The translations under genes and the position numbers were made by a program. Shown piece by piece: positions 10,683 to 14,793 of a stretch of DNA of 20,696 nucleotides (its first letter is position 1; each line of letters opens with the position of its first letter). Location of the stretch: UHGV virus genome UHGV-0115176; one strand, 5' to 3'. The stretch comes from a virus. Under the pieces are notes generated by a model. The model made no database searches. It saw only the letters and a program-made list of their open reading frames with translations, and had not been told where the DNA came from.

Positions 10683-10903
10683 GCTGCACCTCCGAGATGC
10701 TTCATGTTTTTTCCGGAGCGAAAGGCTATAAGCGGCATACTGACGCGGTAATTACGGCCCAGCGGTTCACAAACCACCTTCTGACATTCACGGTCAACCA
10801 GGCTAACACGTAGAACATGCCCTGCAGGCGTGGTGTACCACTGACCCGGACGAGGACAACGGAAAGTATGATTGGTAAACCGTTTGAAAATATTCCGGAT
10901 CAT
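10679..10903 (-). CDS. Hypothetical small protein (74 aa) with three Cys (possible zinc-ribbon-like)
   Basis: ORF-track ORF; 4-nt overlaps with both neighbours (ends 10900/10903 and 10679/10682) imply a translationally coupled operon member. Confidence 0.55.
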   Translation of the reverse strand: MIRNIFKRFTNHTFRCPRPGQWYTTPAGHVLRVSLVDRECQKVVCEPLGRNYRVSMPLIAFRSGKNMKHLGGAA

Positions 10904-12060
10904 TTGCGCCCCCTTACCTCTGAAGGGTTCAGCGACAAATTTATGAGACTGGCCAGTAGCGCCGCGTCGTTGATGCGGTCATACAGACTTACAGCCAGCG
11001 GGGATTCGGCTTTTGCCAACATGGGATAAAGCTGCTGCAGCCAGACCTTGTGGATTACCGACAGGTGGGAGTAAAGCACGCTGGCGTTATCTGCGGCATC
11101 GCTCAGCGTGGATGGCTTTGAAAGCAGTTTTTCCATCTGGTTAAAGGCATTTATGTATGCCTCTTTGAACCGGGCAGCACGTTTACCCGTGAAACCCATA
11201 GCAAGAAACGCAAAACCGTCTCGTGTGATTTGATAGCAAGGGAGCTTGCGTGTACCACCGTTCGGTTGATTTACCGAAATCGATGTCTCCGCAAAATTGC
11301 GGGCACAAAACTCTGGGGAACAATCCAGAGTGCGGATCTTTTTCAGCACATCGTCGTGACGCTTGGAGAAGAAGTTGGCAACAGCCAAAGAAGTGGTAAC
11401 GGCCTGGCCGTTGTCAATGGTGATTTCAGGTTGAGTGAGGGCTGGGATCGTAGCCATGATGGCAGCCTCCGTTGACAGTGAAAAACTTCCACCACCGGAA
11501 ACGCCAATTTCACTGGTGGTGAACTGGACGGGGTTGGCGTAACCGGCGTCAACGGAGACCGGCGCACCTTTCGGTGCCCCCGCCCAGCCCACCATAATCT
11601 GGATGTGAGCAAATGCGGACGATAAAAAAGACGCTGGCGCGTCATACATCGCCGTTGACAATTTCAGGACGCCAATCCCGGCACCCGCTTTATAAGGTGC
11701 CTGAGCAGTGTAACGTCCCGGAATTGCAGAATCAATATGCTGGTGGTCCTTCACACTCAACAAAATCACGCCTGAATTTCCACAAAGGACTAAAGCACTC
11801 ATGCGGGTAGTCTTTGCGAAGATAGATAACGCGCTGTGTTTCTGGCTCCCAACGAATAACATGGACATAAAGCCCTCTTCCGTCACGAAACCAGCGGTTA
11901 AGTTCCTGCACAACTCGCCCCCCACAGTCAGGTAAAGTTCTCTGTGGTTACTTACAGCCAGGTGATTTGGTAATCTGCATTCATGCCGTAACAACAGGTG
12001 TTCAGCGACGCTGACCACCAGCTGTTGCGACAAACGGTTATTTGCCGTTAAACTATTCAT
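10900..12060 (-). CDS. Rha-family phage regulatory protein, long ORF with a ~200-codon N-terminal extension (canonical Rha start at 11457)
   Basis: The segment from the internal ATG at 11455-11457 (GGAGG SD 8 nt upstream) reads MATIPALTQPEITIDNGQAVTTSLAVANFFSKRHDDVLKKIRTLD...ITRDGFAFLAMGFTGKRAARFKEAYINAFN, a Rha-type N-terminus. The same frame stays open for 201 further codons upstream to an ATG at 12058-12060 that overlaps the preceding gene's stop. Confidence 0.55.
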   Translation of the reverse strand: MNSLTANNRLSQQLVVSVAEHLLLRHECRLPNHLAVSNHRELYLTVGGELCRNLTAGFVTEEGFMSMLFVGSQKHSALSIFAKTTRMSALVLCGNSGVILLSVKDHQHIDSAIPGRYTAQAPYKAGAGIGVLKLSTAMYDAPASFLSSAFAHIQIMVGWAGAPKGAPVSVDAGYANPVQFTTSEIGVSGGGSFSLSTEAAIMATIPALTQPEITIDNGQAVTTSLAVANFFSKRHDDVLKKIRTLDCSPEFCARNFAETSISVNQPNGGTRKLPCYQITRDGFAFLAMGFTGKRAARFKEAYINAFNQMEKLLSKPSTLSDAADNASVLYSHLSVIHKVWLQQLYPMLAKAESPLAVSLYDRINDAALLASLINLSLNPSEVRGRK

Positions 12061-12626
12061 GCGTTAGTTTCTCCACAACCAGAAGCAATCGACGCCACGA
12101 CGCCCGGAGCTGCACACTCGCGGGCGTCACTCTTTTCTGGAGCGCAAAAGATTTTGTAGACCAGTGCTGCATGCTCCTGGAGCTTCGAAATTGACAGATA
12201 CAACTCATCATTAATTGCTGTCTGCTCGTGTGGCTCCACTACCCCATCTTCGATTGCCGAACGAATCTGCTTTGAGTAACTCCCGATCTGTTCGATGACT
12301 TCCAGCAGGCGCTGGTTTATATCGGCATTCTCTACTTCCTCAATTTCAGGAAGCGATACAAACACCCCACCAGCAGACTGTGCGACAGCATCCGCAATGT
12401 AGTGAGTGCCAGCCGCGCGCTGTAAAATCATTGCCCATCCCAGCGGGAAAATCTGATCGCCATCTGCACGAAGGCGGTTGAATAAAGCGTTCTCTGTTAC
12501 ATCCAGCCACTCAGCAGCTTCAGCGTAACCCCCCGGCAACGCCGCGATAGTTTTTCTGACAGCTTTCACGTACCACTCAGGCTGTTTTTCTACTTTCCAG
12601 TGATGCTTACCCACGGTTAGCCTCAT
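12057..12626 (-). CDS. CII/YdaT-like early regulatory protein (family assignment tentative)
   Basis: 189 aa; second gene of the rightward early operon, directly after cro, the position of cII/ydaT-type genes in lambdoid and Rac-like prophages; family from memory only. Confidence 0.6.
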   Translation of the reverse strand: MRLTVGKHHWKVEKQPEWYVKAVRKTIAALPGGYAEAAEWLDVTENALFNRLRADGDQIFPLGWAMILQRAAGTHYIADAVAQSAGGVFVSLPEIEEVENADINQRLLEVIEQIGSYSKQIRSAIEDGVVEPHEQTAINDELYLSISKLQEHAALVYKIFCAPEKSDARECAAPGVVASIASGCGETNA

Positions 12627-12657
12627 CGTTCTGTGGTTAAAAATTGAAGGTGTTCTG

Positions 12658-12858
12658 TTAATCTTTCGGATAGATATCCGGTCTTAAGTCAGATTTCGTA
12701 ATTGCACCTGACGTGCATTGCTCAAGTTTTTTAGCCAGCACAAAACTGGCTTTTTTATAACCATTGAAAACCAGCCGTAAGTAGCCTGGTGTTGAGCCAA
12801 CTTTTCCGGCCAACTCGCCCTGCTGTTCTTTGGTTAAAGAGTCCCAATACGCTTTCAT
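12658..12858 (-). CDS. Cro/YdaS-like HTH repressor
   Basis: 66 aa from the ATG at 12856-12858 (MKAYWDSLTKEQQGELAGKVGSTPGYLRLVFNGYKKASFVLAKKLEQCTSGAITKSDLRPDIYPKD), with GGAGG SD 7 nt upstream; divergent from the cI-like gene. The longer ORF-track ORF to 13161 would run through the operator region and the cI start. Confidence 0.75.
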   Translation of the reverse strand: MKAYWDSLTKEQQGELAGKVGSTPGYLRLVFNGYKKASFVLAKKLEQCTSGAITKSDLRPDIYPKD

Positions 12859-12861
12859 ACA

Positions 12862-12884
12862 ATATGTACCTCCGATATACATAT
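12862..12884. promoter_or_regulatory. Candidate operator OR-a (ATATGTACC-N5-GATATACATAT dyad)
   Basis: Inverted arms ATATGTA (12862-12868) / TACATAT (12878-12884) overlapping the pR -10 and the cro SD; a further TACAT copy at 12885-12889. Confidence 0.5.
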
Positions 12885-12913
12885 TACATGATTGAGATGA
12901 ACCTTCAAGATAC

Positions 12914-12932
12914 TTGTACCCTATCGGTACAA
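12914..12932. promoter_or_regulatory. Candidate operator OR-b (TTGTACC-N5-GGTACAA perfect dyad)
   Basis: Perfect 7-bp inverted repeat around a 5-bp spacer, overlapping the candidate pRM -35 and lying just upstream of the pR -35. Confidence 0.45.
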
Positions 12933-12948
12933 AGGTTTTAATTTCGTT

Positions 12949-13623
12949 ATGAAAACAGTCCATGACATCCGGCGGTCTAACGCCAGAAAACTGAGAGATG
13001 GTGTTGGCGGGAATTCTTCCTTTGCCACCATGATTGATCGCGAGCCAACCCAGACCAGCAGGTTTATGGGAGATGGTGCTACTAAAAATATCGGTGACAG
13101 CATGGCACGGCACATCGAAAAATGTTTCGACCTGCCTGTCGGATGGCTTGATCAAGAACACCAGACAACAAACATCACAAAAAAACCTGATGTTTCAATT
13201 ACTAACAAACAAATAACGTTAGTCCCTGTCATATCATGGGTACAGGCCGGAGCATGGAAAGAAGTTGGCTATTCTGAGGTTGATTTGAGCACAGCAGAAA
13301 CTTATCCCTGCCCTGTACCCTGTGGCGAAATGACTTATATCTTGCGGGTGATTGGTGATTCAATGATTGATGAGTACCGCCCGGGAGACATGATTTTTGT
13401 AGATCCTGAAGTCCCTGCCTGCCACGGTGACGACGTTATTGCATTGATGCACGATACGGGCGAAACCACCTTTAAGCGGTTGATAGAAGATGGAACACAG
13501 CGTTACCTCAAAGCATTAAACCCAAACTGGCCTGAACCTTACATTAAGATCAACGGTAATTGCTCTATAATTGGTACAGTAATTTTCTCAGGAAAACCAA
13601 GAAGATACAAAATAAAGGCCTAA
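12949..13623 (+). CDS. CI-like prophage repressor (N-terminal HTH, C-terminal S24 LexA-type autopeptidase)
   Basis: 224 aa; HTH-like N-terminus (ARKLRDGVGGNSSFATMIDREPTQTSRFMGDGATKNIGDSMARHIEKCF); C-terminal S24 signature with Ser in VIGDSM and Lys in TTFKRL; divergent from cro. Confidence 0.85.
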   Translation: MKTVHDIRRSNARKLRDGVGGNSSFATMIDREPTQTSRFMGDGATKNIGDSMARHIEKCFDLPVGWLDQEHQTTNITKKPDVSITNKQITLVPVISWVQAGAWKEVGYSEVDLSTAETYPCPVPCGEMTYILRVIGDSMIDEYRPGDMIFVDPEVPACHGDDVIALMHDTGETTFKRLIEDGTQRYLKALNPNWPEPYIKINGNCSIIGTVIFSGKPRRYKIKA

Positions 13624-13634
13624 TCAATATTTAT

Positions 13635-13658
13635 AACCTGCTTCGGCAGGTTTTTTTA
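13635..13658 (+). terminator. Intrinsic terminator after the repressor gene
   Basis: AACCTGC-TTCG-GCAGGTT (7-bp stem, tetraloop) followed by T7 (13651-13657), 12 nt after the cI stop. Confidence 0.75.
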
Positions 13659-13661
13659 TAC

Positions 13662-13694
13662 TTGACAATGTACCCTTGAGATACATAATGTATC
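13662..13694 (+). promoter_or_regulatory. pL-like promoter (TTGACA-N16-CATAAT) with overlapping operator dyads
   Basis: Consensus -35 TTGACA (13662-13667) and -10 CATAAT (13684-13689); dyad ATGTA (13668-13672) / TACAT (13682-13686) and perfect palindrome GATACATAATGTATC (13680-13694); the 23-mer 13666-13688 matches OR-a at 16 of 23 positions. Confidence 0.6.
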
Positions 13695-14181
13695 TAAAAG
13701 AAACATGCCACAGGCAAGATTAAACAAAATTTGGTTGTAACACGGCGTATGGCACATGCGTCGTTAGCGGTCTGGGGACGTTAAAGGGGACAATCCACTC
13801 CTTGCTCGGGCAAACAAACCAGGTAGCCGGAATGTGCAAGTCAATGATGATGCTGATAAGACGCCTAACCAGCGTGGCGATTCGGTTTGACGCCTGGGAA
13901 GAGACCAGGACGCAACGATGAGAGCATTGACGAGCAAGGCATAAGTGCTGGTTCAATTCCAGACAGTCCCATTCAGATGGGAGGGTTGGGCAGGGAAAAG
14001 GTCCGTTCGATTCGGACACCGGCAATGCTCTCAGCGTTGTGGTGAATGCGCAGGCTGATGCGCGAAAGACATTGCAGCTATTGCGGAAAAGAGCTGTTCG
14101 GCGGGGCAATCAAACGCCCGTGAGAGTCTGAAATAACCGCAAGCCGGAGATCAGCACCGGCACCACAACAGCCACTGCTTT

Positions 14182-14228
14182 GGCGGTACCAGTTTGTACA
14201 CTTGCTTCCGGCTGGTACCGCTCTTTTT
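14182..14228 (+). terminator. Strong intrinsic terminator inside the pL leader, ~140 nt before the first early-left gene
   Basis: Stem GGCGGTACCAG (14182-14192) / CTGGTACCGCT (14212-14222), 10-11 bp and GC-rich, followed by CTTTTT (14223-14228); the 19-nt loop contains TTGTACA. Confidence 0.6.
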
Positions 14229-14365
14229 ACAAAACAGAGAAGAGCATCACCGGACGACGGGCTCATAACCCAATCCATCCGGGCGGCTGTCACCGCAGGT
14301 GTTCTTCTCTGTTTTGTGGAGAAACCAACCGACCTTGCAGGGTCGGTATGATGAGGAGCAGCAAA

Positions 14366-14728
14366 ATGGCTAGCGTACGCAGTACTGATGTGCAGGTATT
14401 TATCGTAGAACTGGACGGCGGCGTATTTGAAACCAAACTCGGCGCAGTTCTCAGTGAAGTCGCTTCCGGTGTGATGAACACGAAAAACAAAGGTAAAGTC
14501 TCGGTCAATCTGGACATCGAACCGTTTGATGAGAACCGTGTGAAAATCAAACACAAACTCTCATATGTTCGCCCGACTAACCGCGGGAAAATTTCCGAAG
14601 AAGACACCACCGAAACACCGATGTATGTCAATCGCGGTGGTCGCCTGACTATTCTGCAGGAAGACCAGGGACAATTACTGACTCTTGCCGGTGAACCTGA
14701 CGGAAAACTACGCGCAGCAGGTCATTAA
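14366..14728 (+). CDS. yfdP: YfdP-like early protein (120 aa), first gene of the leftward early operon
   Basis: ATG at 14366 with GAGGAG SD 7 nt upstream (MASVRSTDVQVFIVELDGGVFETKLGAV...); the upstream in-frame portion of ORF 14180..14728 is Cys/Arg/Pro-rich and looks noncoding. Identity inferred mainly from synteny with the clearer yfdQ/yfdR/yfdS matches. Confidence 0.6.
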   Translation: MASVRSTDVQVFIVELDGGVFETKLGAVLSEVASGVMNTKNKGKVSVNLDIEPFDENRVKIKHKLSYVRPTNRGKISEEDTTETPMYVNRGGRLTILQEDQGQLLTLAGEPDGKLRAAGH

Positions 14729-14793
14729 TATCGTTCTTAATTAACTGATTATTTATCTCATCACTGAATATCTTAATATAGTGAGGACTTATT

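Follow-up and report, generated by a model that had tools for sequence, protein, structure and literature searches.

Leaderless maintenance repressors recur in temperate phages as well as in cryptic prophages, and the described examples are lambda cI, RacR of Rac, DicA of Qin, PaaR2 of CP-933P and ymfK (cohE) of e14. Leaderless translation affects the amount of repressor in the lysogen and, because of this, the stability of the lysogenic state. In E. coli this mode of translation strictly requires AUG as the start codon. Phage lambda makes two kinds of cI transcript, a leaderless one from PRM and a leadered one from PRE. For RacR, DicA and PaaR2, which are all divergent from a cro- or ydaS-like gene, the mapped 5' ends are situated 0-3 nt from the start codon, and leaderless translation of PaaR2 has been confirmed by 5'-RACE and N-terminal sequencing.

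The closest described system to the switch analyzed here is that of e14 in E. coli K-12, where ymfK (NC_000913.3, 1202259-1202933, complement) encodes the CI-like repressor CohE. The SOS-inducible functions of e14, which are not controlled by LexA, have been attributed to this repressor. Primary 5' ends in K-12 were mapped by TAP-differential RNA-seq (dRNA-seq) by Romero et al. 2014 (PMC4681348), and their Table S3 contains a class I transcription start site (TSS) for ymfK, RVS_(I)-1202156, with a “Length of leader (nt)” of 0. Since Table S2 of the same paper labels this TSS 1202157, the leader is either 0 or 1 nt. The offset between these coordinates and the current K-12 coordinates is 777, which is consistent with the ymfK start codon at 1202933, and the TSS on the start codon is the sole class I TSS near ymfK (PMC4681348). 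An independent, Rend-seq-based classification by Zhang et al. 2022 (PMC8794815) also places cohE among the leaderless genes, the criterion being a Rend-seq 5'UTR of at most 5 nt, not exactly 0, together with active expression; by Ribo-seq, cohE was expressed in K-12. In the same study endogenous leaderless mRNAs were no less sensitive to kasugamycin than bulk mRNAs, and for this reason a 70S-initiation route cannot be assumed for the repressor (PMC8794815). The leaderless start of the repressor is in other words already known experimentally for ymfK/cohE of e14, which is near-identical to the gene described below.

The locus and its relation to e14

The stretch of DNA that we analyzed, in the following called the window, comprises 20,696 nt of the virus genome UHGV-0115176. 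It is a lambdoid early region, with a leftward operon carrying Rha/Ash, DnaD-like and primase-helicase genes and a rightward operon ending in an integrase gene. Over positions 12600-13750 the identity to phages cdtI, Ayreon, 2H10, SfV and SfIV and to Stx2c-converting phages amounts to 95.6-99.2%, and the repressor region shows 97-100% identity to the e14/SfV/cdtI immunity region. By this near-identical sequence and by its gene order we assign the locus to the e14/SfV/cdtI-type immunity regions (ymfK-ymfT-ymfL). Matches to the immunity region are present in 1,691 of 5,426 complete E. coli genomes, in which its genes bear the annotations ymfK (LexA-family), ymfT (YdaS-family HTH) and ymfL. This immunity type is a common switch, carried by about one in three complete E. 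coli genomes as well as by cdt- and Stx2c-converting phages. The features of the switch region are collected in Table 1.

Table 1 Features of the repressor switch and its surroundings, with positions in the window.
Feature	Position	Strand	Basis or remark
-35 hexamer TTGTAC, PRM-like repressor promoter	12914-12919	+	Direct reading; doubles as left half of operator O3
Promoter spacer CCTATCGGTACAAAGGT, 17 nt	12920-12936	+	Direct reading
-10 hexamer TTTAAT (family consensus TnTAAT)	12937-12942	+	Direct reading and matrix
Discriminator TTCGTT, 6 nt, from -10 to +1	12943-12948	+	Length conserved across the family, sequence not
Inferred TSS, A of the start codon	12949	+	Matrix prediction; K-12 e14 orthologue mapped with leader 0
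Start codon ATG	12949-12951	+	Direct reading
cI-like repressor CDS, ymfK/cohE orthologue, 224 aa	12949-13623	+	N-terminal DNA-binding domain and Peptidase_S24
Operator O3 TGTACCCTATCGGTACA, perfect palindrome, centre -26	12915-12931	.	Over -35 and spacer of repressor promoter; family-conserved
Operator-like O2 TGAACCTTCAAGATACT, 3 mismatches, centre -43	12898-12914	.	Covers PR -35; abuts O3
Operator O1 TGTACCTCCGATATACA, 1 mismatch, centre -76	12865-12881	.	Over predicted PR start; centre contains complement of cro SD
Predicted PR-like cro promoter: TTGAAG 12908-12903, 16 nt, TAATAT 12886-12881, TSS near 12874	12881-12908	-	8.99 bits, best minus-strand match
cro-like gene, ymfT/croE orthologue, 66 aa	12658-12858	-	SD GGAGG 12873-12869
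ymfL orthologue, CII-family regulator	12057-12626	-	Pfam Phage_CP76
Intrinsic terminator-like hairpin after repressor gene	13635-13652	+	Scan; annotated terminator in SfV and Ayreon
PL-like promoter TTGACA-16-CATAAT, operator TGTACCCTTGAGATACA (13669-13685) in spacer	13662-13689	+	Scan; annotated promoter in phage Ayreon

The repressor contains a Peptidase_S24 domain between residues 93 and 212 (Pfam, E = 1.5e-26). Ala100-Gly101 and Ser138 are invariant in a four-way alignment with homologues from other genera, and Lys176 is situated within TFKRL, so that both the Ser/Lys dyad and the Ala-Gly cleavage site expected of an S24 repressor of the LexA/lambda-CI type are present. The N-terminal DNA-binding domain (12949-13185, aa 1-79) was not recognised by Pfam, while the cro-like protein gave a weak YdaS/HTH_3 match.

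The switch shares gene family, immunity type and the gene order ymfK/ymfT/ymfL with K-12 e14, and the two align without gaps. The -35 and -10 hexamers, the discriminator and the ATG are identical; nearby, only three bases of the promoter spacer have been substituted, and within the first ten codons the sole protein difference is V4I. The O1 operator is perfect in K-12 and has one mismatch in the window. The prophage in the window is also a fuller, SfV/cdtI-like element with different downstream early genes (among them a Rha/Ash module, replication genes and an integrase), whereas e14 is a defective remnant. The evidence on the 5' end is transferred from e14, whose promoter differs at three spacer bases, and the prophage in the window would be expected to behave like e14.

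Anatomy of the repressor promoter

A preliminary description of this DNA had pointed to the hexamers TTGTAC and TTTAAT, with a 17-nt spacer, upstream from the cI start codon, and direct reading of the sequence bears this out (Table 1). It had also called this the best plus-strand promoter of the divergent region. Scored with our own approximate sigma-70 position-weight matrix the promoter reaches 9.89 bits, which is indeed the top plus-strand score in the 90-nt divergent spacer, with 7.09 bits for the runner-up. Scores equal to or above that of the repressor promoter are found at only 14 positions in the window (2 x 20.7 kb), or approximately one per 3 kb of single strand, and with this low frequency it is improbable that chance alone would have put one into the 90-nt spacer and also in register with the ATG. 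The promoter is a weak match to the consensus, with three of six positions in the -35 hexamer, a T rather than an A at the second position of the -10 hexamer (-11), and eight of twelve positions overall. It is absent from the output of a sigma-70 consensus scan, since the rules of that scan demand at least four of six matches per hexamer and an A at the second -10 position. On its own the promoter call is best described as plausible but not compelling. The consensus scan also flagged positions 12914-12932 as “terminator-like”, a call that we rejected because this stretch is the perfect palindrome O3, has a poor T-run and is conserved as an operator in the family.

The TSS was placed 7 nt after the -10 hexamer, which is the A of the start codon. 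This matrix position and the mapped e14 orthologue together support the claim that transcription starts at, or within a few nucleotides of, the cI ATG, and by transfer from K-12 the 5' end of the message in the window would likewise be at or near the start codon. The preliminary description had named two observations that would speak against it, a cI 5' end well upstream and an alternative in-frame start with a functional SD sequence. The K-12 TSS list shows no far-upstream 5' end next to ymfK, and no such alternative start was found; between the stop codon TGA at 12898-12900 and the ATG there is no in-frame ATG, GTG or TTG.

It is equally clear that the ATG lacks a convincing SD sequence, as had been stated. 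In the 20 nt upstream from it the best anti-SD pairing is -3.8 kcal/mol, compared with -10.9 kcal/mol for the GGAGG of cro, and random positions in the window have a 25th percentile of -3.9 and a median of -2.5 kcal/mol. Since this best SD-like pairing is located 12-20 nt upstream from the ATG, within the promoter spacer, it would not be transcribed in any case. An AUG start, the lack of an SD sequence and the lack of an upstream in-frame start, which together characterize leaderless mRNAs, are all found at 12949. The folding of the 5'-terminal 60 nt of the message is not unusually strong (z = 0.17), with nucleotides 1-22 unpaired in the centroid. The parallel to leaderless cI from lambda PRM, also drawn in the preliminary description, goes as far as the exact spacing: in both cases the -10 hexamer is followed by exactly 6 nt and the ATG (TAGATT-taacgt-ATG in lambda, TTTAAT-ttcgtt-ATG in the window), with the mRNA starting on the AUG and no SD sequence.

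Conservation of the spacing between promoter and start codon

A genome scan restricted to one genome per species yielded 30 repressor loci with protein identities from 100 to 40%, distributed over approximately 20 named genera that include Escherichia, Klebsiella, Pantoea, Serratia, Proteus, Morganella, Edwardsiella, Symbiopectobacterium, Salinicola, Vreelandella, Vibrio and Pseudomonas. A scan of viral contigs contributed no diversity, as all copies in it were 100% identical, and the divergent set comes from the scan of genome contigs. In each of the 30 genomic homologues the alignment begins at residue 1, and the four-way alignment of the repressors from Escherichia, Pseudomonas and Vibrio phages likewise begins at Met1. 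The start codon is ATG in 33 of 33 family members, and the anti-SD energies in the family are all -5.2 kcal/mol or weaker.

The promoters were located by a fixed rule, in which the single best plus-strand matrix match in the 90 nt upstream from the ATG was taken for each of 31 distinct upstream regions. The -10 hexamer ends 6-7 nt before the ATG in 24 of the 31 regions, against 3.5% in shuffled controls, where it must be kept in mind that the family sequences are related and that the 24 cases are not 24 independent events. When 6-9 nt are allowed the number is 26 of 31, with gaps of 8-9 nt in Symbiopectobacterium. The gap is 6 nt in 19 regions and 7 nt in five, with 20 different discriminator sequences. 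The five upstream regions that do not fit under the fixed rule come from Salinicola (L109 and L110), Vibrio (L115), Pseudomonas (L116) and Vreelandella (L114).

In 18 sequences that share the same register, T-12, A-8 and T-7 are invariant, A-9 is present in 17, and the TGTAC of the -35 region is invariant in all 18. Positions -6 to -1 are near random with 0.12-0.88 bits per column, after which the ATG is again invariant. From codon 2 onwards the conservation has a 3-nt periodicity with low information at +9, +15, +21 and +27, and because this codon-periodic pattern appears directly after the ATG we conclude that protein-coding constraint applies from the first codons. A fixed distance between the -10 hexamer and the ATG, bridged by drifting bases, is what a leaderless start requires. 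This conservation of geometry across the family, together with that of the three-operator layout, is a new, if modest, addition to the published work, and it speaks for selection of the leaderless arrangement.

At -11 (position 12938 in the window) 17 of the 18 in-register members have T, C or G where a near-invariant A is normally found. The avoidance of A at this position suggests selection for a weak or activator-dependent promoter.

The N-terminal domain (aa 1-79) is 54-58% identical to that of Pseudomonas phage and prophage CI proteins (L004 and L116), which have different linker and C-terminal parts. These Pseudomonas relatives keep the TGTAC-N7-GTACA operators, which indicates shuffling of a cassette consisting of the domain plus its operators. 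One may go further and imagine that the DNA-binding domain, the three TGTAC-N7-GTACA operators, a deliberately sub-consensus TnTAAT and the 5'-terminal AUG are passed on as a single conserved cassette among prophages of approximately 20 named gamma-proteobacterial genera and that leaderlessness is itself selected in it, a proposal to which we assign slightly less than an even chance. If so, leaderlessness would not be an accident of a single phage but could serve to set a low, low-noise or stress-robust synthesis of repressor, and comparisons within the family would lend themselves naturally to studying the reason for leaderlessness in maintenance repressors.

Operators and divergent promoters

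The palindrome TGTAC-N7-GTACA, with at most one mismatch, is found at three sites in the window where 0.2 would be expected. Counted from the ATG, O1, O2 and O3 are centred at -76, -43 and -26, and most homologues show this arrangement again; the O2 site, specifically, is found between -42 and -45 in most of them (at -47 in one locus) with two to three mismatches. Judged from these positions the locus has the layout of a lambda PRM-type switch, with divergent PR and PRM promoters, one operator over PRM and one abutting the -35 region at about -42. The similarity to lambda includes three operators with a middle centre at -43, compared with -42 for OR2, a LexA-like S24 C-terminal domain in the repressor, and a second operator-controlled promoter downstream from the repressor gene.

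The differences from lambda are equally evident. The DNA-binding domain and the operator sequence are unrelated to those of lambda CI, the Cro protein resembles YdaS, and the CII-like protein is a member of the CP76 family. The outer operators are also positioned differently (-76 and -26 for O1 and O3, -66 and -19 for OR1 and OR3), and the best palindrome here is the one that covers the promoter of the repressor itself, whereas OR3 is the weakest CI site in lambda. RacR, DicA and PaaR2 are shorter than the 224-residue repressor of the window and have different operator sequences. To our knowledge they also lack the S24 autocleavage domain.

By its position alone, the site at -43 could mediate positive autoregulation, and the site overlapping PRM negative autoregulation. 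A weak -10 hexamer without A at -11 would be compatible with the former, and the promoter may depend on an activator.

The SD sequence of cro is contained in the central spacer of O1, and its CCTCC core is conserved in the family. With the PR start predicted near 12874 the cro leader would be only some 15-18 nt and begin roughly at the SD sequence, and both genes of the switch would for that reason have unusually short 5' ends.

Alternative origins of the repressor protein

The repressor could in principle be made mainly from a leadered transcript that starts further upstream, with SD-independent initiation at the then internal AUG. Such a transcript could come from TTCATA-16-TATACA, for which a TSS near 12888 is predicted, or from a PRE-like promoter that is activated by CII and situated within cro or beyond it. 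In its favor one may cite the second plus-strand promoter-like match of 7.09 bits, the membership of ymfL in the CII family, and the class II and III TSSs 1203046 and 1203132 (U00096.2), which in K-12 are situated where ymfL and ymfM meet, on the same strand as ymfK and approximately 0.9 kb upstream from it (PMC4681348). That it should be the main source of repressor we nevertheless consider improbable, as the only class I TSS near K-12 ymfK is on the start codon, the dominant Rend-seq 5' end is at most 5 nt from the cohE start, a leadered message would have no SD sequence available, and the conservation in the family follows the spacing from the -10 hexamer to the ATG. A leadered establishment transcript may well exist, given that the locus has a CII-family gene, and as in lambda it would complement the leaderless maintenance transcript and not replace it. 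A brief look for a PRE-like promoter or CII-binding repeats revealed GTTCTGT twice, approximately 24 nt apart, near 12628-12658 at the cro-ymfL junction, which was not convincing.

Even less probable, to the point where we would be very surprised, is a misassigned start codon with translation beginning at M28 (13030), M40 (13066) or M52 (13102) behind a leader of 81-153 nt. All three ATGs are indeed in frame, and the best SD-like pairing among them, a modest -6.0 kcal/mol, is that of M52, but the four-way cross-genus alignment has R8, N11, A12, L15, G20, G21, F25 and A26 as invariant residues, the variation at third codon positions begins right after the ATG at 12949, and a later start would truncate the N-terminal domain. 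With this conservation of residues 1-27 and the alignment of every genomic homologue from Met1 we rejected all three downstream starts. We give similarly negligible credence to the notion that the hexamers are a chance match and that the repressor lacks its own promoter at this locus. The match to only eight of twelve consensus positions, the failure of the consensus scan to detect it and the 14 equal or better matrix scores in the window could all be taken that way; what decides against it is that a published primary TSS is found at exactly the predicted base behind an identical core promoter, and that the hexamers are conserved over the named genera while the flanking bases drift.

Two minor observations concern this upstream region. 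The K-12 TSSs 1203046 and 1203132, corresponding to approximately 7824 and 7910 on the minus strand of L003, the K-12 sequence, may be antisense or establishment-type starts. A plus-strand terminator-like hairpin with a T-run is present at 12733-12751, antisense within the cro coding sequence, and may either stop an establishment-type transcript on its way to the repressor gene or be coincidental.

A model for repressor synthesis in the lysogen

Taken together we find it highly probable that this is the maintenance (PRM-type) promoter in a lambdoid prophage of the e14/SfV/cdtI type, and that the repressor mRNA made from it starts on its own AUG. In the lysogen, sigma-70 RNA polymerase would use TTGTAC-17-TTTAAT and start at A12949, plus or minus 1 nt, and with this start the repressor mRNA would begin with its own AUG and be devoid of an SD sequence. 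The LexA-family repressor of 224 residues would then be translated from the 5'-terminal AUG, as suggested by the conservation of residues 1-27, the codon periodicity from codon 2 and the Ribo-seq data from K-12.

The repressor, and probably also the Cro-like YmfT, would bind to the 17-bp TGTAC-N7-GTACA palindromes, the protein acting at each site being assigned here by position. Binding at O1 would cover the start of the divergent cro promoter, while binding at O3 would cover the -35 region and spacer of the repressor promoter and presumably result in autorepression. The weak O2 site at -43 is where lambda CI bound to OR2 activates PRM, and a corresponding activation may take place here. The further operator in the PL-like promoter downstream from the repressor gene would be a target as well. 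The main value of the work at this locus is that a reading of the bare DNA recovered a fact already present in the literature.

Observations on neighbouring regions

In the plus-strand region 13662-14790 the strong, operator-controlled PL-like promoter is followed by approximately 1.1 kb with no convincing ORF, and in phage cdtI nothing is annotated on the corresponding strand downstream from this promoter until orf39 and a YfdQ-family gene. Rfam gave no match within the switch, and none downstream from the PL-like promoter even at E <= 1.

On the minus strand Rfam identified a C4 antisense RNA at 11512-11599 (81 bits) and isrK at 11624-11700 (62 bits), both within the 386-residue ORF at 10900-12060. 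The C4 and isrK matches share both strand and DNA (11425-11712) with the part of this ORF that gives a Pfam Phage_ASH match (aa 117-212), and the C-terminal part of the ORF matches Phage_pRha; in phage cdtI the whole is annotated as a single “transcriptional regulator”. Either the ORF is over-called across the sRNA leader of an antirepressor module resembling P1 immI or Gifsy isrK, or the protein family is in part a reflection of translated RNA genes.
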